Shown here: piece after piece, positions 811 through 51,028 of the stretch
Numbering within the stretch: the stretch's first letter is position 1
Layout of the letters: each line of letters opens with the position of its first letter
NCBI GenBank assembly: GCA_040003675.1
Contig: JBDUCC010000001.1
Location: forward strand, 1 to 53,518
From: a bacterium
GTDB taxonomy: Bacteria; Acidobacteriota; Blastocatellia; Pyrinomonadales; Pyrinomonadaceae
DNA length: 53,518 bases
Direction of reading: 5' to 3'
Notes under the pieces: generated by a model
The model's database searches: none
What the model saw: the letters and a program-made list of their open reading frames with translations, nothing else
Told to the model about the DNA's origin: nothing
Translations under genes and position numbers: made by a program

Positions 811-910
811 CGAACTTAGTACTTTGTGCTTTGTACTTTTTAAGAGTGCTTTGTGCCGGCGAGTTCGCTTTGGCTCAAATCAAAGTACCAAGTACAAAGT
901 ACTAAGTTCG
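811..910. repeat. hairpin of inverted heptamer arrays (unit tactttg / caaagta) between argR and argG
   Basis: cgaacttagtactttgtgctttgtacttt (811-839) pairs with aaagtaccaagtacaaagtactaagttcg (882-910). The stem is about 29 bp with a few mismatches, and the arms have 7-nt periodicity. Confidence 0.9.
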
Positions 911-923
911 AGAAAAAGGATAA

Positions 924-2135
924 ATGGAAAACAATAAGAAGATTAACAAGATTATTCTGGCCTATTCCGGCGGACTGGATACCTCGGTCATGCTGCGATG
1001 GATCAAGGAACGCTATGACTGCGAGGTTGTTTGCTACTGCGCCGACGTCGGTCAGGGGGACGAATTAAGCGGGCTCGAAGAGAAAGCACTCAAGTCCGGG
1101 GCGTCGAAACTTTACGTTGAGGACCTGCGCGAAGAGTTTGTTCGTGAATACGTTTGGACAGCAGTTAAGGCCAACGCTATCTATGAAGGCGTTTATTTGC
1201 TCGGCACTTCCCTGGCGCGTCCGGTAATTGCGAAACGGCAAATTGAGATCGCGCAAAAGGAAGGGGCCGACGCAGTCGCCCACGGCGCCACCGGCAAAGG
1301 AAACGACCAGGTGCGTTTCGAGCTCACTTACTACGCGCTCCAACCGGACATCAAGGTGGTAGCTCCCTGGCGCGAGTGGGAATTCAAGGGCCGCAGCGAT
1401 CTGATCGCCTACGCAAAGGAATACAAGATTTCGGTTACGGCGACGCAGCAAAAGCCCTACTCAACGGATCGCAACTTGATGCATGTCTCGTACGAGGGTG
1501 GAATTTTGGAGGACCCGTGGGCCGAGCCACCCGAGGACATTTTTCAAATGACGCGTTCACCTGAAGCTGCAGCTTCAGAAGCGGAGTACATCGAGTTGTC
1601 GTTCGAGCAAGGTGAGCCCGTGGCAATCAATGGGCAGAAACTTGGGCCGGTCACGCTGCTGGAAAGTCTAAACAAATCAGGTGGCGACCATGGCATTGGC
1701 CGCGTTGACCTGGTTGAAAATCGTTTTGTCGGGATGAAGTCGCGCGGCGTATACGAAACGCCCGGCGTGACTATTCTACTGGCAGCGCATCGCGCGCTCG
1801 AATCCATCACGCTCGACCGCGAGGTCATGCACCTGCGCGACTCGTTAAGCGTTAAGTTTGCGGAAAGCGTTTATTACGGTTTCTGGTTTGCTCCTGAGTT
1901 TGCACTGATGCGCAAGCTGATCGATGAGACGCAAACGAATGTGACCGGCGATGTTCGTTTGAAACTCTTTCGCGGCAATGCAATCGTCGTTGGGCGTCGC
2001 TCGCCACATTCGCTATACGACGAAAGCGTGGCTACGTTTGAAGCAGACACAGTTTACGACCAGCGCGACGCTGAGGGTTTCATCAAACTAAACGCGCTGC
2101 GACTGCGAATGGGAAGCAAGAACCGGATTGGTTAA
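924..2135 (+). CDS. argG: argininosuccinate synthase
   Basis: 403 aa. It has the N-terminal [12 protein letters not shown]-binding motif, and the sequence is ArgG-like throughout ([29 protein letters not shown]). Confidence 0.95.
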
Positions 2136-2145
2136 GGCGGGAACT

Positions 2146-3282
2146 ATGAAAACATTCAGCGAACAAATCAAAGTTATCGAGGTCGACAAAATCGGCTCGG
2201 CCACGTCGCCGCTCGATTTGCACCGGACAATTGAGATGTGCGGGTCGCTAAAGTTGCCGGCTGCGGGCGATGTGGTGGTTGTGCGCGCCCTGACTGACAG
2301 CGCCACTTACAACATGCTTGAACTGCCCAGCGGCCGGCTTGCCAAAATCAATCCCGGTGATGTGCTCGTCGGTGTTCTTGGCAGACGCCGGGCATTGAAG
2401 GGCTTCATGGGTGACGTGCCGGAGACCGTGGCTGTGGGCGATCAACTTCATTTGCTGAACATGGGCGGCGTGATCGGCATCAGCACCGGCCATCACTCTG
2501 GTTTGAGCGATGCAATCAAGGTTGAGGTACTCGGCTTCGCCTGCGGTGAGAACGGCCGCCAGTTGAACATCGCCGATGCAGCGCTGCCGGTGCAGACCGA
2601 TCTAACTGAAACGGTGCCCCTAATAATCATCGCCGGCACCTGCATGAACAGCGGCAAGACCTACGCCGCCACGGAGCTTATTAAACAAGCGACGCGGGCC
2701 GGCTTGCGCGTGGCCGCAGGCAAACTGTCGGGCATCGCTTGCTTGCGCGACACGCTGAACATGTCGGACCACGGGGCGGTTGCCACTGCAAGTTTCCTTG
2801 ATTGCGGTTTGCCATCAACCGTTGGCGCCACGGACCTGCCCTCTGTCGCTAAGACGATCATTGCCCGGCTTAACGAAAGCAATGCCGACCTGATAGTGAT
2901 CGAACTAGGGGATGGGCTGCTGGGCGGCTATTCCGTGGAAACGGTGTTCGATGATCTACAAATAAGAGAAGCCACCGCTGCCATCATCTTCTGCGCTTCC
3001 GATTATGTCGGCGCCTGGGGAGGAATCGAACTAATGCGCCGGCGTGGGATTGAAATCGACGTCATCGCCGGGTCCGTTACCGATGCGCAGATGGGGCAGG
3101 ACTACATCGAAAAGGAATTTGGTGTGCCGGCGGCCAACGCACGGCGCGATGGCGCGCGTTTGTTTGAGCTGGTCAAGCCACAAGTTTCGGGTTTCGAGTT
3201 TCGAGTTTCGAGTTTGAAGCAGGAAAGGTCGAATCAAGCTGTGATGCCGGATCAGAACTCTGTCGAGAAAGTTTTGGCTTAA
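2146..3282 (+). CDS. uncharacterised protein inside the arg operon: beta-rich N-terminal half plus a P-loop-like C-terminal half (possibly DUF1611-like)
   Basis: The long ORF runs 2128-3282. ATG 2146 is preferred because AAGGCGGGA lies 3 nt upstream and it is 10 nt after the argG stop. It has a deviant Walker-A-like IIIAGTCMNSGKTYAATEL followed by VIELGDGLLGG. The stop overlaps the argC start (TAATG). Its last ~33 codons are encoded by a repeat arm. Confidence 0.7.
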   Translation: MKTFSEQIKVIEVDKIGSATSPLDLHRTIEMCGSLKLPAAGDVVVVRALTDSATYNMLELPSGRLAKINPGDVLVGVLGRRRALKGFMGDVPETVAVGDQLHLLNMGGVIGISTGHHSGLSDAIKVEVLGFACGENGRQLNIADAALPVQTDLTETVPLIIIAGTCMNSGKTYAATELIKQATRAGLRVAAGKLSGIACLRDTLNMSDHGAVATASFLDCGLPSTVGATDLPSVAKTIIARLNESNADLIVIELGDGLLGGYSVETVFDDLQIREATAAIIFCASDYVGAWGGIELMRRRGIEIDVIAGSVTDAQMGQDYIEKEFGVPAANARRDGARLFELVKPQVSGFEFRVSSLKQERSNQAVMPDQNSVEKVLA

Positions 3283-3316
3283 TGAACTCGAAACTCGAAA
3301 CTCGAAACTCAAAACT
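3183..3316. repeat. hairpin of inverted heptamer arrays (gtttcga / tcgaaac) spanning the junction of the unknown gene and argC
   Basis: The left arm agtttcgggtttcgagtttcgagtttcgagttt (3183-3215) faces the right arm aactcgaaactcgaaactcgaaactcaaaact (3285-3316). The 69-nt loop contains the TAATG stop/start overlap. Confidence 0.9.
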
Positions 3317-5880: not shown

Positions 5881-5896
5881 AAGCTCGAAGCAAAAG

Positions 5897-6034
5897 AAGC
5901 GGGGGCAAGCTGCCCTTCCCGACCCTGAGCTGCTAGCACTTGAGTGCATTTATCACATTGAAAGGCTTTCAAAGATTCCGCTCATGTTTCAAGTTTGGAA
6001 TCTCGAGGTTGGGAAGGGCGGCTTGCTTCCGCTT
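5897..6034. repeat. long GC-rich inverted repeat (non-tandem type) between argD and argF'
   Basis: aagcgggggcaagctgcccttcccgacc (5897-5924) faces ggttgggaagggcggcttgcttccgctt (6007-6034). The arms are 28 nt with about 4 mismatches, and the loop is 82 nt. Confidence 0.85.
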
Positions 6035-6049: not shown

Positions 6050-7060
6050 TTGCTTAAGAATTTTCTGACAACTTCTGACTTCAGCAGCGAACAACTTAAT
6101 CAATTGATCGCGGCGGCGCTGCGCTTTAAGAGCGGTGCCGATACATCAAAGCCGCTTGCCGGCAAGTCTATCGCACTAGTCTTCTTCAACCCCTCTTTGC
6201 GCACGCGCGCGTCGATGCAAATTGGAATCCACGAACTGGGTGGACTCGGCGTTGTGCTCGAACCGGGAGGCACAAGCTGGACGCTGGAACATCGCGCCGG
6301 AGTGGTGATGGATGGCGACAAGACCGAACACGTCGCCGAGTTTGTACGCGTCCTTAGTCGCTACTGCTCAGCCATCGGGGTGCGCACCTTTGCCGCGTTA
6401 AAGAACTGGGAAGAAGAGCGAATAGACCCAATACTGAATGCCTTCGCTAAGTATTCCGACGTGCCTGTTATTAACCTTGAGTCAGCCATGCATCATCCCT
6501 GTCAGGCGCTGGCTGACATGATGACGATTCGCGAAAGACTCGGCCGCGAACGTAAACGCGTCGTGTTGACGTGGGCCTGGCACCCAAAACCCCTTCCGAT
6601 GGCTGTGCCAAATAGCTTTGCGCTCGCAGCGGCGCAGATGGGCCATGATCTGGTAATCGCCTATCCCACGGGTTATGAGCTCGACGAAGAGTTAATGGAA
6701 AATGTCACTCAGCGTGCAGCGGCGAGCGGCGGTGGTGTCCAGGTTACAAAGAACATCGATGCGGCGTTTGACGGCGCCGATGTTATCTATGCGAAGAGTT
6801 GGGGAGCCAGGCAGTTTTACGGAACACCTGAAAAGGACATTGCGGAACGAGCACAGTACCGCGCTCAGTGGATTGTCGATGAGCAGAAAATGGCACGTAC
6901 GAACCGGGGCGTCTTCATGCACTGTTTGCCGGTGCGACGCAACGTGATCGTCACCGATGCCGTGATCGATTCACCGGCTTCTGTGGTAATCGATGAAGCG
7001 GAAAACAGGTTGCATGTGCAAAAGGCAATCATGGATAGACTGCTGAGTACTGAGTACTGA
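6050..7060 (+). CDS. argF': N-acetylornithine carbamoyltransferase (AOTCase-type transcarbamylase)
   Basis: 336 aa with a TTG start. From memory it is very similar along its length to Xanthomonas AOTCase (FFNPSLRTR, HPCQALAD, CLPVRRNV, DEAENRLHVQKAIM). Glu80 (gaa 6287-6289, context SWTLEH) sits where AOTCase has the specificity Glu and succinylornithine enzymes have Pro. The last 6 codons and the TGA lie in a repeat array. Confidence 0.85.
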   Translation: MLKNFLTTSDFSSEQLNQLIAAALRFKSGADTSKPLAGKSIALVFFNPSLRTRASMQIGIHELGGLGVVLEPGGTSWTLEHRAGVVMDGDKTEHVAEFVRVLSRYCSAIGVRTFAALKNWEEERIDPILNAFAKYSDVPVINLESAMHHPCQALADMMTIRERLGRERKRVVLTWAWHPKPLPMAVPNSFALAAAQMGHDLVIAYPTGYELDEELMENVTQRAAASGGGVQVTKNIDAAFDGADVIYAKSWGARQFYGTPEKDIAERAQYRAQWIVDEQKMARTNRGVFMHCLPVRRNVIVTDAVIDSPASVVIDEAENRLHVQKAIMDRLLSTEY

Positions 7061-7178
7061 GTACTGAGTGCTGAGTACTGAGTGCTGAGTACTGAGTGCT
7101 GAGACCACGCCCAACTCGGAACTCGAAACTCGAAACTCGGAACTCGAAACTCAGTACTCAGTACTCAGTACTCAGCAC
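7043..7178. repeat. compound heptamer element: ctgagta/ctgagtg array, nested aactcga/aactcgg array, then tcagtac array
   Basis: 7043-7103 holds about 8.7 units of ctgagt(a/g). 7113-7150 holds about 5.4 units of aactcg(a/g). 7151-7178 holds 4 units of tcagtac/tcagcac, the reverse complement of the first array. Confidence 0.95.
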
Positions 7179-7186
7179 TTTCGACT

Positions 7187-8780: not shown

Positions 8781-8804
8781 GTTCAGAGTCCAAGCTTTAG
8801 GTTG
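8781..8804 (+). repeat. REP-like 24-mer, forward copy
   Basis: gttcagagtccaagctttaggttg. The 3' half forms an imperfect internal palindrome (caagc ttta ggttg). Confidence 0.8.
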
Positions 8805-8903: not shown

Positions 8904-9503
8904 GTGTATCAATGGCGAAAGATGTCGGCGACCGAAAGGAAGGCCGCGCTGGAATTGCGTAAGGCACGCAATCTTCCGTGGCATACACCACCACACCTGG
9001 ACTTTGAAGTCGCAAAGCAATATTTGGTTTCTGCATCGTGCTACGAACACGCTTTAATCATAGGCAAAAATCCTGAAAGAATGACCGAATGTGAATCGGA
9101 AATCCTAAGGCTCTTTCGCGAATTCTGTTCCCGAGTTTATGGGTGGTGCGTACTGCCCAATCATTATCACGCCCTTGTGAGAACGGAGCGAATCAAGGAA
9201 CTGAGGAAAAGCATCGGGCAATTTCATGGTCGCAGCTCCTTCAAATGGAACGGGGAGGATAATTGCAAAGGGCGCCAAGTTTGGTACAACTGTTTTGAGC
9301 GACCGATGAAATCTGAACGACATTTCTTTGCTACTCTGAATTATGTACACAACAATCCGGTGCACCATGGGTAGGTAATGCATTGGCAGGCCTGGCCATG
9401 GTCGAGCGCAGCAGAGTTTCTGGAAAGAGTGGGACACGAGAAGGCAAAAGAAATATGGCTAAGGTATCCTGTTCTGGGGTACGGCAAGAACTGGGATAAA
9501 TAG
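8904..9503 (+). pseudogene. REP-associated tyrosine transposase (RAYT / IS200-like Y1_Tnp) with an in-frame TAG at 9372-9374
   Basis: It has the HUH motif LPNHYHALV and the Tyr motif NYVHNNPVHHG. The track ORF ends at TAG 9372-9374, but the same frame continues as VMHWQAWPWSSAAEF (the family's conserved WPWSS tail) to TAG 9501-9503. Homologues as I recall them have NPVKHGYV, so TAY->TAG is likely. The start could also be ATG 8922. Confidence 0.7.
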
Positions 9504-9536: not shown

Positions 9537-9560
9537 CAAACTAAAGTTTGTACTCTGAAC
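9537..9560 (-). repeat. REP-like 24-mer, reverse copy
   Basis: caaactaaagtttgtactctgaac is the reverse complement of GTTCAGAGTACAAACTTTAGTTTG. Confidence 0.8.
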
Positions 9561-12463: not shown

Positions 12464-12499
12464 TCTTGATACCGGTTTTTGGTTTTGGGTCTTTGGTTC

Positions 12500-13021
12500 T
12501 TACGCTCGGCGACTTCGATTCTCAACTATTACGGTTCCTTCGCGCACGACAATTGTTCCAGCGATAAGATCATGCAGGCCGCGACCCCGTGCGTTGAGGG
12601 CGGCAATGATGAATCCCAGGCCCAACATAATGGCCGACAAAGGATAGCCTACGAAATGACGCAGAAACGCGCGTCCAATCCCTAATTCGGTACCATCGTT
12701 TCGCAAAATGCGCAGGCCGGTGGCCCATTTACCAATCGTCAAGCCGGTGAGCCCGGGAAGAACTCCCAGGTCAAGGGCGGCCACCACTAGCGAAAGAAAA
12801 ATCCCAACGCTTTCCGAAGAGCTTCCAGCTGAGCGCGCACCGCCACCAAGTAATCTGCTGATTAGCGTACTAAACGCCAAAATTGCGACCAGCACTATGT
12901 AGTCGATCAGAATCGCACCGCAGCGCAAAGAAAATGGCGCGCGAATTCTGGCGAGATTTTGTACGGGAGGGCCGGGCTTTACGCTTCTTTGCACGGCAAC
13001 TGTTTCAGCGGCAGCGGTCAT
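12500..13021 (-). CDS. RDD family membrane protein
   Basis: 173 aa with hydrophobic segments and a typical RDD-domain pattern (APFSLRCGAILIDYIV, GKWATGLRI, HDLIAGTIVV). Confidence 0.7.
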   Translation of the reverse strand: MTAAAETVAVQRSVKPGPPVQNLARIRAPFSLRCGAILIDYIVLVAILAFSTLISRLLGGGARSAGSSSESVGIFLSLVVAALDLGVLPGLTGLTIGKWATGLRILRNDGTELGIGRAFLRHFVGYPLSAIMLGLGFIIAALNARGRGLHDLIAGTIVVREGTVIVENRSRRA

Positions 13022-13024: not shown

Positions 13025-13156
13025 TCAGAAGTCAGAAGTCAGAAGTCAGAAGTCAGAAGTTAGAATAACTCAGGTGTTGGCTGTCAGTTGTCAATTCTTA
13101 GCAGAAAACGCGTCACGCTTCTGAACTGACCTCTGACCTCTGACTTCTGACCTCTG
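13025..13156. repeat. hairpin of inverted heptamer arrays (tcagaag / cttctga, gacctct) between the kinase and RDD genes
   Basis: 13025-13066 holds tcagaag x5 plus ttagaat. 13118-13156 reads cttctgaactgacctctgacctctgacttctgacctctg. Confidence 0.9.
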
Positions 13157-13163
13157 CCTTTTA

Positions 13164-19477: not shown

Positions 19478-19482
19478 ACCGA

Positions 19483-19596
19483 GCAAACAGCGAACAGCAG
19501 ACAGCAAACAGCCGGAGAAACAACTCTGAAGTTGCTGGACTGAAAGTTCCTGATTGCCTATAACAAATGCTGTTTGCTGTTGACTGTTTGCTGTTT
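19483..19596. repeat. hairpin of inverted heptamer arrays (aaacagc / gctgttt) between permeases 1 and 2
   Basis: gcaaacagcgaacagcagacagcaaacagc (19483-19512) faces gctgtttgctgttgactgtttgctgttt (19569-19596). Confidence 0.9.
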
Positions 19597-19605
19597 ACTA
19601 ATCGC

Positions 19606-20855: not shown

Positions 20856-20925
20856 GCAGTTCAGAGTACAAATTTTAGTTTGCTGTTTTCCGTACCAACA
20901 AACTAAAGTTTGGACTCTGAACTGC
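20856..20925. repeat. inverted pair of REP-like 24-mers between permeases 2 and 3
   Basis: gcaGTTCAGAGTACAAATTTTAGTTTG (20856-20882) faces CAAACTAAAGTTTGGACTCTGAACtgc (20899-20925). It is the same family as the RAYT-flanking copies. Confidence 0.85.
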
Positions 20926-22235: not shown

Positions 22236-22379
22236 GGAGCAGACGGCAGCGGCAGACGGCAGGGGCAGTCGGGCGAAGGCATACACGCGGCGGCAATTAC
22301 GTTTTTATCCTGCCGACTGCTCCTGCCGACTGCCGACCGTTATTATCCTGCCGACTGCTCCTGACCGACTGCCGACTCC
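22236..22379. repeat. hairpin of inverted approximately 7-nt arrays (gcagacg / ctgccga) with a duplicated right arm, between permeases 3 and 4
   Basis: The left arm is ggagcagacggcagcggcagacggcaggggcagtcgg (22236-22272). The right arms are cctgccgactgctcctgccgactgccgacc (22309-22338) and cctgccgactgctcctgaccgactgccgactcc (22347-22379). Confidence 0.9.
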
Positions 22380-22397: not shown

Positions 22398-23654
22398 ATG
22401 AGACTAATCCGCAGCGACATTTACGAAAATCTCAAGATGGCACTCGCCACTTTGCGCGGCAACAAACTGCGTTCATTCCTGACTGTTTTTGGGGTGATGA
22501 TTGGCGTGATCACCGTAATGTTGATTTCTTCGATCATCAGCGGCGTTGACACGGCGGTGAAGAAAGAGCTCGAGTCTTACGGCACCAACTCGATCTTCAT
22601 TATCAAGTTTAATTCCGGCATTCACATCGGACGTCTCTCGCGCGAAGAGCGCATGCGTAAAGACTTAACTTACGACGATGCGATCGCACTGACGCAGTTG
22701 CCTGCCGTTGAGCTTTCGGTCCCCTTTCTCGACATCGGCAATAACTTCTTCGGACAGAAAATCATGGTGTCGAGTCCCGGAAAGACTTCCGCTGCCGTAG
22801 CTTTGCAAGGCACGCTGCCTGATTTCGAACGCGCCGGAACACAAATTATTAAAGAGGGTCGATTCTTCACGCAGTATGAAAATGATAACAACGAAGAAGT
22901 TGCGGTAGTCGGCTCGACTGTGGGTGCGGATTTTTTTCCTTATGGCTCGCCGGTCGGTCAGGAAATTGCAATTGGGGGGCGGCAATTTCGGGTTGTCGGG
23001 GTGCTGGAAAAGCGTGAACAGTTTCTGCTGGGCGGCGGCGACGACGATCAGAACAACATTATCTATGTGCCATTCAACGTGGCGCGCAAACTTAAACCCA
23101 GTTCACAGGATGTCTACATCCTGGCCGTAGCGCGCAAAGGAATGATGGACGAAGCACAGGATCAGATCACAGATCTTTTGCGCGTGCGCCGTCAGGTGCC
23201 TTTCGGAAAACCCGATAACTTTGGACTGCAAACTGCAGAGCTATTCCTTAGTAATTTCCGTTCGATCCTTAGCGGCGTGGCTATTGCGATGGTCGTCATT
23301 TCTTCAGTTGGGTTGATGGTTGGCGGCATCGGTGTGATGAACATCATGCTCGTTTCGGTCACCGAACGGACGCGCGAAATTGGCGTGCGCAAAGCCATCG
23401 GCGCGCGGCGCAGCGACATCATGTGGCAGTTTTTGATCGAGGCGGCAACGCTGACCGGTTTCGGCGGGTTGGTTGGTCTATCAATCGGTTGGTTGCTGAC
23501 TTTTCTGTTGCGCTTGTTGCTGCCTTCTTACGTACCGCTGTGGGCGCCAATCGGCGGCTTTGTGGCCAGCGTTGGTATTGGTTTGATTTTTGGACTTTGG
23601 CCGGCATGGAAAGCGGCGCGGCTGGATCCGATAGAATCGCTCAGGTACGAATAA
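22398..23654 (+). CDS. MacB-like FtsX-family ABC permease, paralogue 4
   Basis: ATG 22398 is preferred (GGAGAG 4 nt upstream; MRLIRSDIYENLKMALATLRGNKLRS). The track start is 22386. It has VSVTERTREIGVRKAIGA and ends AARLDPIESLRYE. Confidence 0.8.
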   Translation: MRLIRSDIYENLKMALATLRGNKLRSFLTVFGVMIGVITVMLISSIISGVDTAVKKELESYGTNSIFIIKFNSGIHIGRLSREERMRKDLTYDDAIALTQLPAVELSVPFLDIGNNFFGQKIMVSSPGKTSAAVALQGTLPDFERAGTQIIKEGRFFTQYENDNNEEVAVVGSTVGADFFPYGSPVGQEIAIGGRQFRVVGVLEKREQFLLGGGDDDQNNIIYVPFNVARKLKPSSQDVYILAVARKGMMDEAQDQITDLLRVRRQVPFGKPDNFGLQTAELFLSNFRSILSGVAIAMVVISSVGLMVGGIGVMNIMLVSVTERTREIGVRKAIGARRSDIMWQFLIEAATLTGFGGLVGLSIGWLLTFLLRLLLPSYVPLWAPIGGFVASVGIGLIFGLWPAWKAARLDPIESLRYE

Positions 23655-23659
23655 AGGAT

Positions 23660-23761
23660 GTAGGGTGTTGGGTGTAGGGTGTAGAAAAAAGAAGGCGTCT
23701 CCTTCTCTACACCCAATATCTCTTGCTCTTACCTACACCCTACACCCTACACCCTACACCC
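23660..23761. repeat. hairpin of inverted heptamer arrays (gtagggt / ctacacc) between convergent genes
   Basis: gtagggtgttgggtgtagggtgtag (23660-23684) faces ctacacc x4 (23733-23761). An inner hairpin gggtgtaga...tctacaccc lies at 23677-23714. Confidence 0.9.
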
Positions 23762-23781
23762 TTGCTCTTACACCCTTGCTC

Positions 23782-24755: not shown

Positions 24756-24824
24756 GTTCGGAGTAGAAGCTTTAGCTTGATGCTTCCGCATCATTTCAAC
24801 CTAAAGGATGGACTCTGAACTGCC
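24756..24824. repeat. inverted pair of REP-like elements downstream of, and overlapping, the end of the ATPase gene
   Basis: GTTCGGAGTAGAAGCTTTAGCTTG (24756-24779) faces CAACCTAAAGGATGGACTCTGAACtgcc (24797-24824). The right copy encodes the last 8 codons and the TAG of the gene ending at 24801. Confidence 0.75.
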
Positions 24825-25799: not shown

Positions 25800-25813
25800 T
25801 TGGAAAGTGATAT

Positions 25814-25941
25814 CAGCAGATTACGCAGATTTCACAGATTTCTTCTCGACAGCGACGACGTGATTCTTACTCCAATGTGGGCGGACGGCTATTAACGTTT
25901 TAGCGTTTTACCCTAATCTGTGGAATCTGCGTAATCTGCGG
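25814..25941. repeat. hairpin of inverted 9-nt arrays (cagattacg / aatctgcgt) between the two ATPase genes
   Basis: cagcagattacgcagatttcacagatt (25814-25840) faces aatctgtggaatctgcgtaatctgcgg (25915-25941). The right arm encodes the C-terminal ...SADYADSTD and the TAG of the upstream gene. Confidence 0.9.
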
Positions 25942-26950
25942 ATACTTTCTGATGGTCGGCGGCAACCGCAGCCGCCAAATCAAACAGCACGCATCGAACC
26001 TTCACACCGCCTTCTAAATCGTAAAACGGTATCTCTTCCGCAGTGCAGCGCGGCATACGATACGGACAGCGCGGCGCGAAATGACAACCGGGCGGAAGAT
26101 CCGTCGGGCTGGGAACCGTCCCTTCGATTGTCTCCAGTCGTTCGGCTTTGCCGGCAGCCGCACTGGTAAGTTTCGGGACGGATCGCAGCAATCCTTCGGT
26201 GTAGGGATGGCGCGGCCGTGCAAATAATTCTTCAACCGGCGACTCTTCGACAATGCGGCCGGTGTACATAACTGCTACCCGATCGGCAACTTCAGCGACG
26301 ACGCCAAGATCGTGTGTTATTAGAAGCACTGCCAGCTCGCGATTCTTTCTGAGCTCATTTAACAACTCGAGAATCTGCGCTTGAATAGTAACGTCCAATG
26401 CCGTCGTCGGCTCGTCGGCAATCAATAGTTTCGGATCGCAGGCCAGGGCCATTGCGATCATCACACGCTGGCGCATGCCGCCCGAGAGTTGATGCGGGTA
26501 ATCGTCGATGCGTCGCGCCGGATCGGGAATGGAGACTTCGCGCATCGCCTCAATAGCGCCTTCGCGCGCGGCTTTGCGCGAAAGTTTGCGATGCAAGCGC
26601 AGGGCTTCGGCAATCTGTTCGCCAACGGTGAAAACAGGATTCAGGGACGTCATTGGATCCTGAAAGATCATCGCAATGTCGTCGCCGCGAATCGCGCGCA
26701 TCTCACTATCTGATAGTTTCAGCAAATTCCTGCCGTCAAAACTAATCTCCCCACCAACAATCTTTCCCGGCGGCGCGATCAGCCGCATGATCGAAAGCGC
26801 AGTGATTGATTTGCCACAACCGGATTCGCCAACCAGCCCCAGCAGCTCGCCTTTATCTATGTAAAAGCTCACGCCATCGACCGCGCGCACCAAACCGGCA
26901 CGCGTGGGAAAGTGTGTTTGCAGATTATTTACTTCGAGCAGGTGTGACAT
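25913..26950 (-). CDS. oligopeptide/dipeptide ABC transporter ATP-binding protein (OppD/DppD type)
   Basis: It has [34 protein letters not shown] and [11 protein letters not shown] 26950 ([10 protein letters not shown]) is preferred; it lies 2 nt after the mutase stop. Confidence 0.85.
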
Positions 26951-28563: not shown

Positions 28564-28636
28564 TGATCGTTAAATCGAGTCCTTAGTTGAAGCAAAGCGT
28601 AACATAAGTTTAGCTAGTCATCGCCACTTGAGTGCA

Positions 28637-28749
28637 GAACCGCGAGCGGTAGCGACCGGATGCCGGCATTCAGCCAGAGTAAAGATGATCCCACAAAACT
28701 TTCGATCCTCTCGTTGGGTGTAGCATCCGGTCGCTACCTCTCGCGGTTC
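28637..28749. repeat. long inverted repeat (non-tandem type) in the mutase/rlmI-like divergent region
   Basis: gaaccgcgagcggtagcgaccggatgc (28637-28663) faces gcatccggtcgctacctctcgcggttc (28723-28749). The arms are 27 nt with about 2 mismatches, and the loop is 59 nt. Confidence 0.9.
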
Positions 28750-28807
28750 CGCAAACTTTGCTCTTTTAGGGAACGACCCTTTATTGGTTATAGTGGAATC
28801 AACGAAC

Positions 28808-39540: not shown

Positions 39541-40005
39541 ATGCCTGAAGTTGGAGAAACCGCTCCGGATTTCGAGTTGCCAAGTCATTTGGAAAAGGGA
39601 AAGAAGGTAAAGCTCTCGGATTTCCGCGGCAAAAACAATGTGGTGCTGGCGTTTTATCCGCTGGCCTGGACGCCTGTCTGAACGGCGCAGATGCCTGCGT
39701 ACGAGGCCGACCTCGAACGCTTTCAAGGCTATGATGCCCAGGTGCTGGGTATTTCAGTTGACAGCGTGCCGTGTAACACCGCGTGGGCCAAGAGCCTCGG
39801 TTCCTTGTCCTACGATCTCTTGAGCGACTTTCATCCGAAAGGAGAGGTCGCAAAACAATACGGCGCCTATCGCGACAGCGATGGCATAAGCGAGCGTGCT
39901 CTTTTCATTATCAATAAGGAAGGCAAACTCGCTTACAAAGATATTCACAACATTGCAGACCAACCAGACAATGAAGACTTGTTTGAAGTTTTGAGGAAAC
40001 TGTAA
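39541..40005 (+). CDS. AhpE/Bcp-like peroxiredoxin with in-frame TGA (39679-39681) at the peroxidatic Cys position; candidate selenoprotein
   Basis: GAGAGAGGAG-N7-ATG at 39541. 46 codons (..[15 protein letters not shown]) run to the TGA, and the same frame then continues [11 protein letters not shown]...[15 protein letters not shown]...[13 protein letters not shown] to TAA 40003-40005. The track lists only 39691-40005. Confidence 0.7.
39697..39720 (+). promoter_or_regulatory. candidate bacterial SECIS hairpin for the peroxiredoxin TGA
   Basis: GCGT-a-CGAGG / ccga / CCTCG-a-ACGC gives 9 bp with one A-A mismatch. It starts 15 nt after the TGA, and the apical loop contains G. Confidence 0.45.
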
Positions 40006-40014
40006 AGCTAGAGG

Positions 40015-40082
40015 GTCGGATGTCAGAGGTCAGAGGTCAAATGCAGACTTCTGACCTCCGATCTCTGACCTCTGACCTCTGA
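40015..40082. repeat. hairpin of inverted heptamer arrays (tcagagg / cctctga) between the two TGA-containing genes
   Basis: gtcggatgtcagaggtcagaggtca (40015-40039) faces tctgacctccgatctctgacctctgacctctga (40050-40082). Confidence 0.9.
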
Positions 40083-40084
40083 TT

Positions 40085-40813
40085 ATGTCTTTCTCGAGAA
40101 AATGCGTTCCCTTTACACCGTTTGATGGTGAGCTAGCGAAGAGCACTGTGGCATTAGTCACCGCTGGAGGCGTTCATCTCAAAGACCAGGAGGCATTCAA
40201 TATAGCCGATGAGCTTGGCGATCTGACTTATCGCGTAATTCCGGAGGACGTCGATGCGGCTGACCTGGTGGTTACACATCATCATTACGACCACAGCGAT
40301 GCGGACAAAGATATTAATGTCGTGTTCCCGATTGACGTGCTTCGGGATCTTCAGCACGAAGGTTTCATTCGCGGAATCGCAAAGAAGCACGTCGGCTATA
40401 TGGGCTATACCATGCAGCTCAAAGCAATGTACGAAGGAACCGCACGTGAAATCGCCAACGAGATCGACAAAGGGTCGCGCGCCGATGTGGTAGTTCTAAC
40501 GGGTGGTTGACCAAGCGTTTGTCACCGCACGGTCGTAGCGGTTCAGCGGGAAATTGAGATGAGAGGCATACCAACAGTTTTGATAACGGTGAGCCCTGAA
40601 GTCTCGGCGCAAATGCGGCCGCCACGCGCTCTTTATCCAAACGGATTTAAGATCGGCAACAGTTTGGGAAAGCCTAATATGCGCGAACTGCAGTTAAAGG
40701 TCTTGCGTGATGCCTTATCGTTGCTGGCGGAAGACACGCGACCCGGGAAAATCGTTACGCGCGATTATCCTGAGTACGGTGAATATCATGAACCCCCGCG
40801 AGTGAAGACATAG
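40085..40813 (+). CDS. glycine/sarcosine/betaine/D-proline reductase selenoprotein-B (GrdB/PrdB)-like family protein with in-frame TGA at 40508-40510; candidate selenoprotein
   Basis: Track ORFs 40085-40510 and 40559-40813 are in the same frame with no other stop between them. The joined product reads ..ADVVVLTGG-U-PSVCHRTVVAVQREIEMRGIPTVLIT... The N-terminal ALVTAGGVH and HHHYDHSDADKDINVVFPIDVLRDL also fit the family, as I recall it. Confidence 0.65.
40524..40542 (+). promoter_or_regulatory. candidate SECIS hairpin for the GrdB-like TGA
   Basis: ACCGC / acggtcgta / GCGGT starts 13 nt after the TGA, and the loop contains GGUC. Confidence 0.4.
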
Positions 40814-40943
40814 TTTCGAGTTCAGAGTTTCGAGTTTCGAGTTCACGATCCCCTTAGGTAAACTCTGAATCAATTCACGCTAGCACTCGACTTTGATCTG
40901 ATGGTGGCTGACGCCTTTAACTCGAAACTCGAAACTCGAAACT
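40812..40943. repeat. hairpin of inverted heptamer arrays (agtttcg / cgaaact) between the GrdB-like gene and pfkA
   Basis: agtttcgagttcagagtttcgagtttcgagttc (40812-40844) faces aactcgaaactcgaaactcgaaact (40919-40943). It uses the same heptamer as the 3183-3316 element and the 7113-7150 array. Confidence 0.9.
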
Positions 40944-40954: not shown

Positions 40955-42100
40955 ATGCCTGACACGATTGGAATATTAACCGGTGGTGGCGATGCTCCCG
41001 GACTAAACGCTGTGATTCGCGCAGTCGTAACTACGGCTACCGGGCAATACGGCATGAATGTCATCGGCATCGAAGATGGCTTTGAAGGATTGTTAGGCGA
41101 AACCCACACGCGACAGTTAACCACGGCGGATGTCAGGGGGTTACTGCCGCGCGGCGGCACGATTCTCGGTACGCGCAATCGCGGCAGGTTTGTCGAGCGC
41201 GCTGCCAACGGAGTTTCCCAAAAAGTCGAAAGTCTCTACCTCGAAGCAGTGGACAACGTACGGCGCCTGGGCATTGACGCGATAGTAGTGTTGGGCGGGG
41301 AGGGCACCCTGACGATCGCCCACGAGTTTGGCAGGTTTGGTATTCCCGTAGTCGGCGTTCCTAAGACGATTGACAACGATCTCGCTTGTACAGAACTGAC
41401 GTTTGGTTTTATCACTGCACTGGATATTGCTACCGACGCGCTCGATCGCCTGCACACTACCGCAGAGTCACACGACCGCGTGATGATCCTGGAAGTTATG
41501 GGTCGTAACGCCGGTTGGATTGCATTACACTCAGGCATTGCCGGTGGCGCCGACGTAATTCTCATTCCCGAGATTCCTTTTACAATGCAGTCGGTGGCCG
41601 ACAGAATTCGCGCGCGCGACGAGGCTGGTTCCAACTTTAGTATTATTGTCGCTGCTGAGGGTGCGATTGAAACAGGCCACGACTTGATTTACCAGGACAC
41701 GGGCGACCCTCATCATGCACCGCGGCTAGGCGGGATCGGCGCTTATTGTCAACACGAACTGGAAGCGCTAACCGGGAAAGAGGCGCGCTGTGTTGTGTTG
41801 GGCCACCTGCAACGTGGCGGCAGACCGAACGCTTTCGATCGCATGTTGGCAACAAACTATGGCTCGTGTGCGGTGCGCGCAATCGTCGAGGGCAAACAAG
41901 GAGTAATGGTGGCGCTTCAGGCTGGCGATGTAATCACTGTCCCCATCTCTCAGGCGATTGCCAACGTGAAGACAGTGCCGGCCAATGGGCAACTGGTGCG
42001 TACGGCTCGCGACACGGGTATTTCCTTCGGCGCACCCGATGAAGCGCAACATCACCGGCCACATAGCGAAAGTGGCGAGCCTGTCTCATCTTGCCGCTAA
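40955..42100 (+). CDS. pfkA: 6-phosphofructokinase (ATP-dependent type by the GGEG motif)
   Basis: 381 aa with GILTGGGDAPGLNA, VLGGEGTL (Gly at the ATP/PPi discriminator position), PKTIDND and MGRNAG. Confidence 0.85.
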   Translation: MPDTIGILTGGGDAPGLNAVIRAVVTTATGQYGMNVIGIEDGFEGLLGETHTRQLTTADVRGLLPRGGTILGTRNRGRFVERAANGVSQKVESLYLEAVDNVRRLGIDAIVVLGGEGTLTIAHEFGRFGIPVVGVPKTIDNDLACTELTFGFITALDIATDALDRLHTTAESHDRVMILEVMGRNAGWIALHSGIAGGADVILIPEIPFTMQSVADRIRARDEAGSNFSIIVAAEGAIETGHDLIYQDTGDPHHAPRLGGIGAYCQHELEALTGKEARCVVLGHLQRGGRPNAFDRMLATNYGSCAVRAIVEGKQGVMVALQAGDVITVPISQAIANVKTVPANGQLVRTARDTGISFGAPDEAQHHRPHSESGEPVSSCR

Positions 42101-44598: not shown

Positions 44599-44624
44599 TT
44601 CTGACTTCTGACTTCTGACTTCTG
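44599..44624. repeat. unpaired heptamer array (ttctgac x3.7) immediately upstream of the biotin carboxylase start
   Basis: ttctgacttctgacttctgacttctg. No inverted partner lies within about 150 nt. It uses the same unit as the right arm at 13118-13156. Confidence 0.85.
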
Positions 44625-44629: not shown

Positions 44630-46189
44630 ATGATCCGAAAAATTCTAATTGCCAATCGCGGTGAGATCGCCGTCCGCATAATTCGCGCCTGTCGCGATCT
44701 GAATATCTCGCCGGTGGCGGTTTATTCAGAGGCGGATAGTACGGCGGTCCATGTGGGACTCTGCGCTGAAGCGATCTGCATTGGACCCGCCCCCTCTGTC
44801 GAAAGCTATCTCGACATTTCAAAAATCATTGACGCGGCAAAGAAGACCGGCGCGGACGCGATTCATCCCGGTTATGGTTTTCTTGCCGAAAATGCTGACT
44901 TTGCAGCAGCCGTTGCCGCGGCTGGATTGATATTTATTGGCCCGGGCGTGGAAGCGATGCGGGTAATGGGTTCCAAGACAAGCGCTCGCAGTGCAGCAGT
45001 GGACGCGGGCGTTCCAATCGTTCCCGGTACCGTGGCACCGTTGAATTCTTTTGCAGACGCCGAAGCAACCGCAAAACAATTTGGTTATCCGGTAATGCTT
45101 AAAGCATCTGCGGGAGGCGGCGGCAAAGGCATGCGGTTGGTCACAACCCCGGGAGAGCTGCGGTCGGCTTTTGCTAATGCCAAATCAGAAGCAGCGTCAG
45201 CGTTCGGCGATTCCGCAGTCTACCTGGAGAAAGCAATCGACCGGCCGCGTCATATTGAAATTCAGATCGTCGGCGACAAGCACGGTAATGTGGTCCACTT
45301 GGGAGAGCGCGAATGCTCAATTCAGCGGCGCCATCAGAAGGTGGTTGAAGAGTGCCCATCGCCAATCAACGATCCTTCACTGCGCGAGCAAATGGGTGCG
45401 GCTGCCGTTCAACTGGCGCGTGCTGTGAATTATGTGGGCGCAGGCACGGTGGAGTTTCTGGTAGCCGCCGCCACCCGCGAATTTTTTTTCCTCGAGATGA
45501 ACACCCGTTTACAAGTTGAGCATCCGGTGACCGAATTGGTGACCGGCATCGATATTGTGCGCGAACAGATTACCGTTGCTGATGGCGCGCCGCTTTCGTT
45601 TACGCAGCAGCAGGTTGATTGGCGCGGGCACGCGATCGAGTGCCGCGTTTACGCCGAAGATCCGGAGAATAATTTCTTTCCTTCACCGGGAAAAATCAGT
45701 CATTTGCGAATTCCTGACGGTCCGGGTATCCGCGACGACAGCGGTGTTGAAATCAACTCGGAAGTTTCGATTCATTACGACCCCATGATTTCAAAGCTGG
45801 CGGCCTGGGGCAGCACTCGAGAAGAGGCCATCGATCGCTTGCGGCGCGCGCTTGATGAATACGAAGTGGGTGGCATCAAGACGACGCTTCCCTTCTTCCG
45901 CGAGATCGTTCGCGACGAAGAATTCATCGCCGCCCGATTAGATACCGGATTCATTGGGCGTTTTAACGAGCGACGTGAAGGAGGGCGCGCAGCTGCTTCT
46001 GGGAATGTTGAACGGCAGACGTTACAGGACATCGCGCTGATTGCGGCCGCCGTTCATCACGCGCGATCACAAAAAGAGGCTTCTTCGAGGCCGGTGACCG
46101 AAGGTGGTCAAAGTCGTTGGAAGATGGCGGGACGTACAGCCTTGCTAGTTGAAAGGACCGCAACGCGGGACAGAAAGCTGAAGAAGTAG
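44630..46189 (+). CDS. accC: biotin carboxylase (acyl-CoA carboxylase biotin carboxylase subunit)
   Basis: 519 aa with KILIANRGEIAVRIIRA, an ATP-grasp domain (GGGGKGMR), and EMNTRLQVEHPVTE. A C-terminal tail of about 70 aa follows, and there is no fused biotinyl domain. Confidence 0.9.
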   Translation: MIRKILIANRGEIAVRIIRACRDLNISPVAVYSEADSTAVHVGLCAEAICIGPAPSVESYLDISKIIDAAKKTGADAIHPGYGFLAENADFAAAVAAAGLIFIGPGVEAMRVMGSKTSARSAAVDAGVPIVPGTVAPLNSFADAEATAKQFGYPVMLKASAGGGGKGMRLVTTPGELRSAFANAKSEAASAFGDSAVYLEKAIDRPRHIEIQIVGDKHGNVVHLGERECSIQRRHQKVVEECPSPINDPSLREQMGAAAVQLARAVNYVGAGTVEFLVAAATREFFFLEMNTRLQVEHPVTELVTGIDIVREQITVADGAPLSFTQQQVDWRGHAIECRVYAEDPENNFFPSPGKISHLRIPDGPGIRDDSGVEINSEVSIHYDPMISKLAAWGSTREEAIDRLRRALDEYEVGGIKTTLPFFREIVRDEEFIAARLDTGFIGRFNERREGGRAAASGNVERQTLQDIALIAAAVHHARSQKEASSRPVTEGGQSRWKMAGRTALLVERTATRDRKLKK

Positions 46190-46768: not shown

Positions 46769-46897
46769 GGGATGAAAGCGGAAAGATGAAGGACATCCTA
46801 AAGGATGAAGGCGGAAGGATGAAGGATGAAACGAAGCCCACTGGCGTGTCGCGGGGATCATACTCATCCTTCATCCCTCATCCTTCATCCTTCCGCG
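46769..46897. repeat. hairpin of inverted heptamer arrays (ggatgaa / ttcatcc) upstream of, and overlapping, the HAD gene start
   Basis: Left arrays at 46769-46830 read gggatgaaagcggaaagatgaagg...aaggatgaaggcggaaggatgaaggatgaa. The right array at 46863-46897 reads ctcatccttcatccctcatccttcatccttccgcg. Confidence 0.9.
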
Positions 46898-47735: not shown

Positions 47736-48425
47736 TCAATTCCACTCCACCATCAATCGCTCAACATGGATCTTCGTTGTATCGAGCAGCGGCATACCAT
47801 TGTGCAGTTCATCTTTCAGCAACAACGGCAACTCAGTGCCACCCAGAATTAAGGCTTCGATACCCTCTCGCGCTTTCAGCTCATCTGCGATTGCCAGCAA
47901 ACGTTCACGCGTTTCCGGCAGAAAGAGATTATTGAGCAGCTCGCCAATGTACTTTTCATGAATGTAGCTCTGTTCTTCTTCGTTCGGAGTAACCAGCGCC
48001 ATACCGGCGCGTGAAAATACTTCCGGGTAAAATTTTCCGTGCATTGTAAAGCCAGTGCCAAACAAGCCCACCCTTTTCAAGTCCAGCGCCTGAACCTTTT
48101 CGCTCGTCGCTTCGACAATACTAACCAGCGGAATACGAGAACGCCGCTGCACTTCATCAAAAACAATATGCGGCGTGTTCGCAGTAAAGGCCGCGAAGTC
48201 AGCACCGGCAGCAGCGAGTCGCTCAACCGCGCCCGCGAGTTCCTGCGCAAATTCGTCCAATTTGTTCGCATTCATGAGCGCCAGCAGGAGCTTGAGGTTC
48301 ACGCTGTTGATGATGATCGAAGGGTAGTTGCCGTCTTGCTGCTCGCGGTACGCTTCAATAAGCAGCCGGTAATATTCAATCGTCGATTCCGGACCAGTGC
48401 CACCAATGAGGCCAAGTGTTTTCAT
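47736..48425 (-). CDS. aspartate/glutamate racemase family protein
   Basis: 229 aa with MKTLGLIGGTGPESTIEYY, a conserved C-terminal half (LILGGTELPLL) and a typical Asp racemase-like layout. Confidence 0.8.
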   Translation of the reverse strand: MKTLGLIGGTGPESTIEYYRLLIEAYREQQDGNYPSIIINSVNLKLLLALMNANKLDEFAQELAGAVERLAAAGADFAAFTANTPHIVFDEVQRRSRIPLVSIVEATSEKVQALDLKRVGLFGTGFTMHGKFYPEVFSRAGMALVTPNEEEQSYIHEKYIGELLNNLFLPETRERLLAIADELKAREGIEALILGGTELPLLLKDELHNGMPLLDTTKIHVERLMVEWN

Positions 48426-48522
48426 ATCAGCGGATTTTAGCAGGAATAACTTGCCTCCGATTAACGCGGATCGGCGCGGATAAGCAAGAACAAATTTACA
48501 GACCAGCGGCGAACTATCGAAG

Positions 48523-50568: not shown

Positions 50569-50571
50569 AGC

Positions 50572-50604
50572 GATAGATTCTAGATACTAGATGCTGGATG
50601 CTAG
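50572..50604. repeat. left arm of the heptamer hairpin (gatagat tctagat actagat gctggat gctag)
   Basis: This 7-nt periodic array is the reverse complement of the array at 50996-51028 and contains the TAG stop (50601-50603) of the four-helix-bundle gene. Confidence 0.9.
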
Positions 50605-50999
50605 TCGTTTGCTGAATTTCTGACAGATCGCATCAGTCCATTCAAGATGCGACCTACCTCGTCAAGTTGCCCGCGCAATGCTTCATGTATCTCAAGACTC
50701 AGAAAGCCAAGTCGAGTAGCTGATTCTAAATGAGTGTCAAGTTCCCAAAGCGAGCCCCTAGCGTTAGAGAGAAAATATAGAAATTCTTTTGTGAGTCTTC
50801 GGCCTTGTCCTTCGGCGATGTTTGCCGGGATGGAAGTAACTGCTCGGCGGATCTGACTCGTGAGACCGTACCTCTCTTCGATTGGGAACCGCTCCGTCGC
50901 GCGGTAAACGCTGACAACCAGATCCATTCCTTTCTGCCAAACGATCAAGTCTCGATGACTTTTTATCACGGCCTTGGCTGAAGCGTTCGTCTCTTGCAT
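50601..50999 (-). CDS. four-helix-bundle protein (23S rRNA intervening-sequence protein / Avd-like family)
   Basis: 132 aa. It has DLIVWQKGMDLVVSVY, ERYGLTSQIRRAVTSIPANIAEGQGR and FLSNARGSLWELDTHL, the signature pattern of this family. Confidence 0.9.
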   Translation of the reverse strand: MQETNASAKAVIKSHRDLIVWQKGMDLVVSVYRATERFPIEERYGLTSQIRRAVTSIPANIAEGQGRRLTKEFLYFLSNARGSLWELDTHLESATRLGFLSLEIHEALRGQLDEVGRILNGLMRSVRNSAND

Positions 51000-51028
51000 C
51001 TAACATCTAGCATCTAGCATCTAGCATC
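50996..51028. repeat. right arm of the heptamer hairpin (gcatcta x4.7)
   Basis: gcatctaacatctagcatctagcatctagcatc contains the ATG (50999-50997, minus strand) of the four-helix-bundle gene. Confidence 0.9.

Follow-up and report, generated by a model that had tools for sequence, protein, structure and literature searches.

Heptanucleotide-repeat hairpins of the STRR/LSSR type at gene junctions of a Pyrinomonadaceae genome

The window considered here, the 53,518 nucleotides (nt) of contig JBDUCC010000001.1 from a bacterium of the acidobacterial family Pyrinomonadaceae (assembly GCA_040003675.1), is ~88% coding, and many of its gene junctions are occupied by short head-to-tail arrays of a heptanucleotide. 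There are 14 such array loci in the 53.5 kb, and at 12 of the 14 a reverse-complement partner array lies 8 to 395 nt away. Each of these paired loci is an imperfect palindrome, and each arm of the palindrome is itself a short tandem array of a 7-nt unit. The elements are heptanucleotide-repeat hairpins of the STRR/LSSR type rather than a new class.

The arrays are well separated from chance. Tandem Repeats Finder, run on the window, detects a period-7 array at every locus listed in a preliminary description made from the sequence alone, together with a period-9 array at 25817-25842 / 25915-25942. A self-match scan of the window (array score at least 13, periods 4-12) finds 13 strong period-7 arrays versus 0-2 for each other period, and 100 dinucleotide-preserving shuffles of the window contain no strong period-7 array; in 1.19 Mb of DNA from relatives the corresponding counts are 89 period-7 arrays versus 0-5 at other periods. 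The arms of the 12 paired loci are 25-63 nt long, have a G+C content of ~44%, and are 79-97% complementary, giving stem lengths of 25-38 base pairs (bp). When folded as RNA, the 11 short loci have predicted energies of -42 to -87 kcal/mol and each forms one long stem, while the 465-nt locus at 50570-51034, which includes an open reading frame (ORF), reaches about -150 kcal/mol. The arrays are not an assembly artefact, because two independent assemblies, contigs L083 and L084, reproduce window positions 39751-40843, including the hairpin at 40014-40084, with one mismatch and no gaps. A scan of the window against Rfam at gathering thresholds matched no family and no rRNA.

Most of the preliminary description is borne out by these results. 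Its period-7 arrays are detected without exception, its inverted arrays pair at 12 loci and fold into stems of 25-35 bp, and the array at 44599-44624 indeed has no partner arm. It was also correct that units recur at unlinked sites (GTTTCGA/TCGAAAC, TCAGAAG/CTTCTGA, and TCAGAGG/CCTCTGA); at least 10 different repeat units are found within the 53 kb. All 13 of its loci are present, but it missed an unpaired GGTTTTT array at 12474-12498, which brings the total to 14. In addition, what it took for a spacer of up to 400 nt at 50572-51032 is a gene, encoding a PF05635 protein, which fills the 395-nt interval. The loci are listed below by the coordinates of their left and right arms, with the strand, the flanking genes, the unit in the left and right arm, the arm length, the complementarity of the arms, and the predicted folding energy (dG, in kcal/mol).

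810-839 / 882-911, + strand: hairpin between argR and argG; TACTTTG / CAAAGTA; 30 nt, 93%; dG -51.3; the stem (810..911) stops 12 nt ahead of the argG ATG at 924.
3183-3214 / 3285-3316, + strand: hairpin between ORF 2128-3282 and argC; GTTTCGA / TCGAAAC; 32 nt, 94%; dG -61.4.
7041-7103 / 7115-7177, + strand: hairpin between argF and argB, whole element 7041..7179; 63 nt, 79%; dG -87.3; core at 7067-7097 / 7149-7179 (31 nt, 97%); built in the order (CTGAGTA)x9, inner (AACTCGR)x6 at 7113-7152, then (ACTCAGT)x4; the argF stop (7058-7060) lies inside the left arm and the argB ATG (7187) 7 nt past the stem.
12474-12498, - strand: unpaired array between an RDD gene and a SpoIIE-phosphatase gene; GGTTTTT on the + strand.
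13026-13056 / 13126-13156, - strand: hairpin between a Ser/Thr kinase gene and the RDD gene, element 13026..13160; sense-strand units AGAGGTC ... CTTCTGA; 31 nt, 90%; dG -65.0; 3-4 nt from the upstream stop and from the ATG at 13021.
19482-19512 / 19569-19599, + strand: hairpin between two MacB-type permease genes; AAACAGC / GCTGTTT; 31 nt, 84%; dG -49.1; 5' arm A+C-rich, as at few other loci.
22239-22272 / 22308-22377, + strand: hairpin between two MacB-type permease genes; GCAGACG / CGTCTGC-like; 94%; dG -74.8; right arm duplicated (38 nt x 2).
23654-23691 / 23726-23763, unstranded: hairpin between convergent MacB and Yip1 genes; GTAGGGT / ACCCTAC; 38 nt, 87%.
25811-25840 / 25915-25944, - strand: hairpin between two oligopeptide-type ABC ATPase genes; 9-nt unit, CAGATTACG-like; 30 nt, 93%; dG -51.2.
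40014-40041 / 40050-40077, + strand: compact hairpin, element 40014..40084; GTCAGAG / CCTCTGA; 28 nt; dG -41.8; directly adjoins the ATG at 40085.
40812-40836 / 40919-40943, + strand: hairpin upstream of pfk, in a 444-nt spacer; AGTTTCG / TCGAAAC; 25 nt; the stem stops 11 nt ahead of the ATG at 40955.
44599-44624, + strand: unpaired array before a biotin carboxylase gene; (TTCTGAC)x3.7; 5 nt to the ATG at 44630.
46801-46829 / 46864-46892, + strand: hairpin between the BCCP and HAD-hydrolase genes; AAGGATG / CATCCTT; 29 nt, 90%; dG -48.7.
51032-51000 / 50604-50572, - strand: cassette resembling a 23S rRNA intervening sequence (IVS), between bshC and mutL; (AGATGCT)n / (AGCATCT)n; 33 nt, 85%.
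50601..50999, - strand: PF05635 (S23p) gene inside the 50572..51032 cassette; 132 amino acids; E 2.6e-37.

The hairpins fit the junctions between genes closely. Ten of the 12 paired loci lie between co-directional genes, in agreement with the earlier statement that operon interiors are included; one lies between convergent genes, and one (40812-40943) lies upstream of pfk. The upstream stop codon is found 0-11 nt before the 5' arm or just within it, the 3' arm stops 0-12 nt short of the next start codon, and the hairpins span their junctions from stop to start almost exactly, filling operon junctions that in relatives measure only 13-40 nt. The earlier claim that all loci are intergenic holds for the ~79% of array bases that lie in the 12% non-coding fraction of the window, but several arrays overlap coding sequence. 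In particular, arrays contain the final 6 codons of argF and the final ~10 of the ABC gene that ends at 25913, as well as the N-terminal end of the HAD gene, whose start codon has to fall within the 46801-46892 hairpin. The reading frame of ORF 2128-3282 continues across the left arm and the loop of its hairpin (3183-3282), and this C-terminal tail is not conserved in most relatives. On the other side of the same hairpin, the right arm (3285-3316) is translated as argC codons 2-12, because the ATG at 3282, which directly precedes it, is the only usable argC start. Arrays placed in this way generate spurious N- and C-terminal extensions in gene calls.

Evidence for how the arrays change comes from comparison with near-identical strains, represented by four contigs from other sequencing runs that are 99.1-99.9% identical to the window over ~9.5 kb of alignment. 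Samples in which near-identical strains are present are SRR31070307, SRR34294543, and SRR26386605. Beyond 1-nt indels, the aligned sequences differ in length only at 51010 and 12487, each time by one 7-nt unit within an array. At 51010, in the 5' arm of the 50572-51032 cassette, the window has one unit more than contig L081; at 12487, in the unpaired array 12474-12498, one 7-nt unit differs from contig L082 (L081 and L082 are 99.1-99.4% identical to the window). Slippage thus adds or removes one unit at a time in the arrays of different strains, and the comparison of copy number that had been suggested supports the earlier description of the arrays as slippage-prone.

Over longer distances whole hairpins come and go. 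The nearest ArgG relatives of the window are metagenome-assembled genomes of Pyrinomonadaceae and Blastocatellia (Acidobacteriota), with up to 92% identity, and the gene order argR-argG-orfX-argC-(tRNA-binding)-argD-argF-argB is kept in relatives. In 80 related loci the argR-argG spacer is either 13-40 nt without a hairpin or 80-240 nt and built of a heptamer hairpin, and at least seven unrelated unit types are found there; in contigs L017 and L024 the argR stop and argG start even overlap as ATGA. The four genomes that are ~92% identical to the window in ArgG show three states of this spacer, and the window shows a fourth. The argF-argB site turns over in the same way and the site upstream of argC behaves similarly, but at the latter many genomes retain GTTTCGA-like units, probably because coding sequence is overlapped there by both arms. 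The number of arrays also varies, from none over 15-21 kb in some relatives to 4-6 in others. Within the family, then, hairpins appear, disappear, or give way to unrelated units, and no individual hairpin is therefore essential. The presence of GTTTCGA at two arg junctions raised an arginine-specific role for this unit as a candidate; it is ruled out, since a third copy precedes pfk.

The arms themselves carry a record of how they arose. Where a unit in one arm departs from the regular pattern, the partner arm carries the mirror image of that variant, with 80-100% complementarity that includes the non-periodic variants, and so the arms are whole copies of one another rather than independently grown arrays. 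A clue to the origin of the units is given by contigs L040, L046, L051, and L055, in which the argR-argG array consists of TCAATGA-like units. TCAATGA is also what L017 and L024 have at the ancestral junction, where the argR stop and the argG start overlap, which hints that this array may have been born in place.

A further property is shared by most of the hairpins. A G+T-rich 5' arm is found in 59 of the 68 hairpins, or in 37 of 44 when each distinct unit is counted once (p = 5e-6), and the composition of the 5' arm is 32% G, 30% T, 26% A, and 12.5% C. An orientation relative to transcription was considered as an explanation and is ruled out: the 5' arm of a palindrome is identical on both strands, and the bias is therefore a handedness of the hairpin and not a strand preference.

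The same handedness is seen in hairpins that carry a gene. The 132-amino-acid product of 50601-50999 is a member of PF05635, the family of the 23S rRNA intervening sequence protein (S23p), which is a four-helix bundle; it also matches bAvd (E 2e-8), below the Pfam cut-off. When metagenome contigs were scanned with this protein, 80 loci were obtained, 74 of them with usable flanks. Inverted repeats (bracket score at least 30) enclose the gene in 48 of the 74, versus 1 of 71 control ORFs from the same loci (p = 4e-18), and the arms have a clear 7-nt periodicity in 39 of the 48, versus one control. The bracketing units include AGATGTC, AGAGGTT, CAGTTGC, AGTGGTC, and CAGGTGT, and 45 of 47 bracketing hairpins have the handedness of the ORF-less ones. 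These cassettes occur in diverse surroundings (68 neighbour clusters among 121 neighbours), but the gene upstream of them is co-directional in 65 of 66 cases.

PF05635 genes on plasmids are arranged similarly, and hairpins enclose members of this family in several phyla. Matches were found in 45 records of plasmids from cultured organisms, 22 of them from Nostoc and most others from further cyanobacteria. Of eight genes inspected, seven lie between inverted repeats (Anabaena sp. 90, Nostoc edaphicum, Calothrix brevissima, N. punctiforme, Geminocystis, Pseudanabaena, and Gemmatirosa). Clear 7-nt units are present in five of the seven, and all seven have units in the range of 6-8 nt (Pseudanabaena 6 nt, Geminocystis 6/7 nt, Gemmatirosa 8 nt). 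The repertoire of units overlaps with that of the ORF-less hairpins: AGGGTGT / ACACCCT, which brackets the Calothrix and N. punctiforme plasmid genes, is the unit of the window hairpin at 23654-23763, and AGAGGTC, found at window positions 13026 and 40014, brackets PF05635 genes in soil contigs. Units exactly common to both kinds of hairpin number 5, with 1.2 expected. (Counting units within one mismatch was tried as a measure of a shared repertoire and rejected as not discriminating, with 19 observed versus 15.6 expected.) The link between ORF-less and gene-carrying hairpins rests on a shared architecture, a shared handedness, and partly shared units. On two of the plasmids the PF05635 gene is flanked by cas6 and cas4, and on another it lies, in opposite orientation, between the genes for the two ribonucleotide reductase subunits.

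A precedent for the function of such a stem is provided by the 23S rRNA IVS of Coxiella burnetii, which contains an S23p ORF and is closed by a terminal stem of 28 bp; RNase III, which excises the element, cleaves this stem in vitro, and the ends have also been mapped in vivo (PMC4990558). The stem region of this IVS contains tandem GACAGAT heptamers whose number varies between strains (PMC4990558). GACAGAT is one mismatch from the AGATGTC of the metagenome PF05635 loci. Since the cassette at 50572-51032 shares the IVS architecture, the RNase III processing suggested in the preliminary description gains indirect support. In the literature searched, heptamers together with an IVS or S23p were found only in PMC4990558.

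Taken together, these observations lead us to see the elements as fast-evolving, largely dispensable STRR-type hairpins that are transcribed within operons and are probably RNase III substrates, a reading to which we give a probability of roughly 55%. The hairpins would be co-transcribed with their flanking genes, and the transcripts would fold into double-stranded RNA stems of 25-35 bp (up to ~60 bp). RNase III would then cut these stems, as it does in the Coxiella IVS; this step is probable by analogy with that system and given the general substrate range of the enzyme. Cleavage would split a polycistronic mRNA between cistrons, free start codons that would otherwise be occluded by the base of the stem, and alter the stability of both mRNA halves. 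The hairpins would persist as nearly neutral or semi-selfish passengers, evolving through slippage and whole-arm copying. Two conjectures may be offered for their handedness. The C-rich, G-poor arm, if transcribed second, would pair at once and never be exposed as a single-stranded loading site for Rho, so that the bias might reflect avoidance of such a site; alternatively, the bias might serve to leave, after cleavage, an A/C-rich unstructured leader ahead of the next cistron's start codon.

Several results weigh against this proposal. Many relatives have no hairpin at the same junctions, which counts against any required function. Among mismatches within the arms, those that would read as G:U on the sense strand are no commoner than those that would read as A:C (46 versus 53, p = 0.55), and complementarity therefore looks as though it is maintained at the DNA level by copying and not by selection on a single RNA strand. 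A search for an RNase III signature in all DNA examined (the window and the retrieved contigs) gave no rnc gene; RNase III is near-universal in bacteria, and its presence in this genome is assumed on that ground. Finally, a PF05635 gene is present at only 1 of the 14 window loci, and tblastn across the window and the 1.19 Mb of relatives (~66 hairpins) found no PF05635 gene besides 50601-50999.

Other explanations have to be weighed against the same data. The hairpins could be pure mutational by-products with no RNA-level role, in which slippage expands a 7-nt seed, intrastrand template switching copies the arm, and the result is tolerated because it is folded out of the way. Unit-length polymorphism between strains, mirror copying of whole arms, the lack of a sense-strand G:U bias, and the hairpin-free spacers of many relatives are all in keeping with such an origin, as are the junction-matching units of L040, L046, L051, and L055. 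We nevertheless hold it to be on the unlikely side, since a symmetric mutational process predicts 50:50 handedness, which the 37 of 44 distinct units with a G+T-rich 5' arm run counter to, and since neither the consistent enclosure of PF05635 genes nor the recurrence of units across unlinked sites and phyla is explained. Alternatively, a mobile element of the S23p/IVS type may have given rise to the ORF-less hairpins as miniature, non-autonomous forms, which have spread into spacers in the manner of MITEs. Architecture, handedness, and some of the units are common to both forms; the gene-carrying cassettes sit in many neighbourhoods, nearly always downstream of a co-directional gene; relatives at ~92% ArgG identity differ in the state of the argR-argG spacer; and mobility of IVS elements has already been proposed (PMC4990558). 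This account is rather doubtful, however: the loops of same-unit hairpins share no sequence and hold no S23p remnants, no target-site duplication or transposase is evident, the units differ at almost every locus in a way that MITE or REPIN families do not, and the junction-derived TCAATGA units favour an origin in place. A role in the DNA itself, as cruciforms, as arrays bound by a protein such as a pentameric S23p, or as recombination or replication signals, would suit the strand-symmetric arms, which present the same hairpin to a protein on either strand, and the lack of any strand-specific RNA signal. In metagenome loci the type of unit tracks PF05635 similarity, AGATGxx units accompanying the closest PF05635 relatives in at least two gene contexts and AGAGGTT, CAGTTGC, and AGTGGTC units the more distant ones, and PF05635 is related to the nucleic-acid-binding Avd of diversity-generating retroelements (the sub-cut-off bAvd match). 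Yet this co-variation could be simple co-inheritance within a cassette, and units vary from locus to locus within a genome that shows a single PF05635 gene in 53 kb, so that we think a DNA-level role quite improbable.

The position of the hairpins bears on the remaining alternatives. They may act as translational devices, the stem joining the upstream stop to the downstream start or hiding the ribosome-binding region and thereby coupling cistrons. The near-exact span from stop to start, with the 3' arm 0-12 nt from the start codon, is what such a device calls for, and in the hairpin at 3183-3316 translation of the upstream ORF passes through the left arm, and the argC ATG is placed at the right arm's base. 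Coupling has also been proposed for the hupS-hupL STRR hairpins (PMC2670836), and the TAACTGA arrays of Beggiatoaceae likewise end beside start codons (PMC4679880). But tight placement is equally expected if a hairpin simply occupies an ancestral junction of 13-25 nt, the hairpin at 23654-23763 lies between convergent genes, and at most loci the upstream stop is outside the stem, so that a terminating ribosome would not open it; a translational device is accordingly an unlikely explanation. Intrinsic termination or attenuation, the latter among the roles suggested earlier, has in its favour the strength of the stems and the one hairpin between convergent genes. It is nonetheless very unlikely, and neither role is supported, for no stem has a canonical U run (4-5 residues or longer) immediately behind it (the closest, at 40943, is ACTTTTATT), the stems are AT-rich and much longer than terminator stems, most of them are located within operons in which the genes further downstream need to be expressed, Rfam gives no matching family, and the hairpin is missing from the same spacer in many relatives. 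Least probable of all is membership of the REP/REPIN elements, with the IS200-like (RAYT-type) transposase encoded at 8904-9374 as the mobilising enzyme. A gene of the Y1_Tnp type is indeed present and REPINs are also intergenic hairpins (PMC3116915), but this gene is flanked by a different, fixed motif, GTTCAGAGT[AC]CAA, that has doublets of its own, whereas the heptamer hairpins have no fixed shared sequence and do have a tandem substructure that REPs lack. With units that differ between loci and a RAYT-like gene that carries another motif, REP/RAYT membership was rejected.

The window's REP/RAYT system is in fact distinct from the heptamer hairpins. The IS200-type Y1 transposase gene (8904-9374, + strand; Pfam Y1_Tnp, E 1.9e-5) is flanked by inverted copies of GTTCAGAGT[AC]CAA at 8781-8793 (+) and 9548-9560 (-), and hairpin doublets of this motif are present in two spacers (20859-20871 / 20910-20922 and 24756-24768 / 24808-24820). 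It has 8 matches in the window, with 0.6 expected, and is also present in L005, L014, L019, and L082. Two other inverted repeats have neither 7-nt periodicity nor the REP motif: one of 33 nt (82%) at 5897-5929 / 6002-6034, between argD and argF, and one of 31 nt (94%) at 28633-28663 / 28723-28753, in the divergent spacer between a methylmalonyl-CoA mutase gene and a methyltransferase gene. In some relatives the argR-argG spacer is likewise filled by palindromic elements without heptamers (L041 300-428, L057 9865-10001, and L016 9893-10001), of which those in L041 and L057 share the element TTTGGAGTGCGGTGGCAAGCG... and that in L016 is different, GTCCGACAAACTTCAGTTTGTCG...; this junction thus accepts several kinds of hairpin insert.

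Long inverted repeats also coincide with the ends of assembled sequences. Six of eight short-read contigs from near-identical strains end in, or within ~30 nt of, a hairpin or long inverted repeat: L082 ends in the array at 13025, L083 at window position 40843, L084 at 40782, L173 and L174 ~25 nt past Yip1, and L175 ~15 nt before the 5897-6034 inverted repeat. The Yip1 contigs stop in the hairpin and the contig with the tRNA-binding-protein gene stops before 5897-6034, and they therefore give no information on copy number. Hairpins of this kind likely fragment metagenome assemblies of Pyrinomonadaceae. Look-ups of the exact ArgR, ArgB, BCCP, and GreA proteins found none on record.

Some of the ORFs next to the hairpins are of note in their own right. 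ORF 2128-3282 (+ strand, 384 amino acids), between argG and argC, is conserved across the whole family. No Pfam domain is confidently assigned to it; the P-loop part of DUF1611 gives a weak match below threshold. It may be an uncharacterised enzyme of the arginine pathway. The hairpin at 40014-40084 separates ORF 39691-40005, which is AhpC/TSA-like and covers the C-terminal part of the Pfam profile only, from ORF 40085-40510 (141 amino acids), whose match to glycine reductase selenoprotein B is confined to the C-terminal third of the latter. The two may be split or selenocysteine-interrupted genes.

Beyond the processing of individual junctions, it is possible, though we put it forward only tentatively, that heptamer hairpins and PF05635 genes are two parts of one cross-phylum system. 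Such a system would extend over Acidobacteriota, Cyanobacteriota, Gemmatimonadota, Coxiella, and possibly Xanthomonas, with the gene always inside a hairpin of fixed handedness; the role of an Avd-like S23p pentamer would be to recognise the heptamer arrays, to protect them, or to assist in their propagation, and the ORF-less hairpins would be its miniature or target forms. If this is true, it would explain both the STRR repeats, which have been without explanation since 1990, and the S23p ORFs of rRNA IVSs. If the PF05635 association is functional, it would tie the STRR repeats to the IVS/S23p puzzle and predict RNase III processing at many operon junctions. In any case, the window places STRR-type elements, at ~1 per 4 kb, in a soil acidobacterial family, and it supplies testable handles in the unit-wise slippage between co-existing strains, the handedness of the hairpins, and the association with PF05635 / S23p.

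The preliminary description held that this architecture fits no described family, which is contradicted by precedents in filamentous cyanobacteria, in Xanthomonas, and in the Coxiella IVS; it is because of the cyanobacterial and Xanthomonas cases that we do not regard it as new. To our knowledge, heptamer hairpins have been known in cyanobacteria since 1990 and later in Xanthomonas, and have no accepted function. The literature searched on Acidobacteria and Pyrinomonadaceae contains no report of such heptamer repeats. Heptamer repeats are reported to be over-represented in many bacteria (Mrazek 2007). Like LSSR/STRR-type repeats, the window arrays consist of head-to-tail 7-nt units in excess of chance and of other periods, and change in copy number by whole units. 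With cyanobacterial STRRs they share tandem 7-nt units that are dispersed, mostly intergenic, and numerous (14 loci in 53.5 kb), as well as the occurrence of hairpin pairs within operons; the inverted-array form is shared with cyanobacterial plasmids too, down to the AGGGTGT / ACACCCT of 23654-23763. The differences are that the present host is an acidobacterium and not a heterocyst-forming cyanobacterium, and that the window units differ from those of the classical STRR1-3 (CCCCAGT, TTGGTCA, and CAACAGT). In filamentous cyanobacteria, STRR heptamer hairpins are found within operons such as hupS-hupL; transcript stability or translational coupling has been proposed as their role (PMC2670836). 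Xanthomonas genomes contain 70-75 convergent pairs of GGGAATC arrays each, capable of forming stem-loops (Rehm et al. 2015, PMC4692102), and these are ~90% intergenic and vary in length between related species (PMC4692102). In Xanthomonas, however, there is one G-rich, quadruplex-prone unit per genome, whereas the window has many units, none of them quadruplex-prone.

Other families resemble the window elements in part. In Beggiatoaceae, TAACTGA arrays end a few nucleotides from start codons and some overlap the ends of ORFs (MacGregor 2015, PMC4679880), but they are built of a single unit and are nearly always partnerless (169 direct sets versus one inverted; PMC4679880), in contrast to the inverted pairs and many units of the window. 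REP, BIME, and REPIN elements are likewise intergenic hairpin-forming repeats that are often inside operons; each REP family, though, has one conserved sequence of 20-40 nt and no tandem substructure, while heptamer hairpins vary in their units and are not linked to the RAYT gene. An IVS with an S23p ORF is found in Coxiella and Leptospira, and ORF-less IVSs occur in Salmonella. The window resembles these systems in the long terminal stem that encloses a PF05635 ORF at 50572-51032 and in the stems of 25-38 bp at 12 loci, compared with ~28 bp in Coxiella; it differs from them in that its elements lie between protein-coding genes and not in helix 9, 25, or 45 of 23S rRNA, and in that 13 of the 14 loci have no ORF. 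What the hairpins of this genome and their relatives add to these known systems is a fixed handedness and an association with PF05635 genes, and both go beyond anything that we found described.

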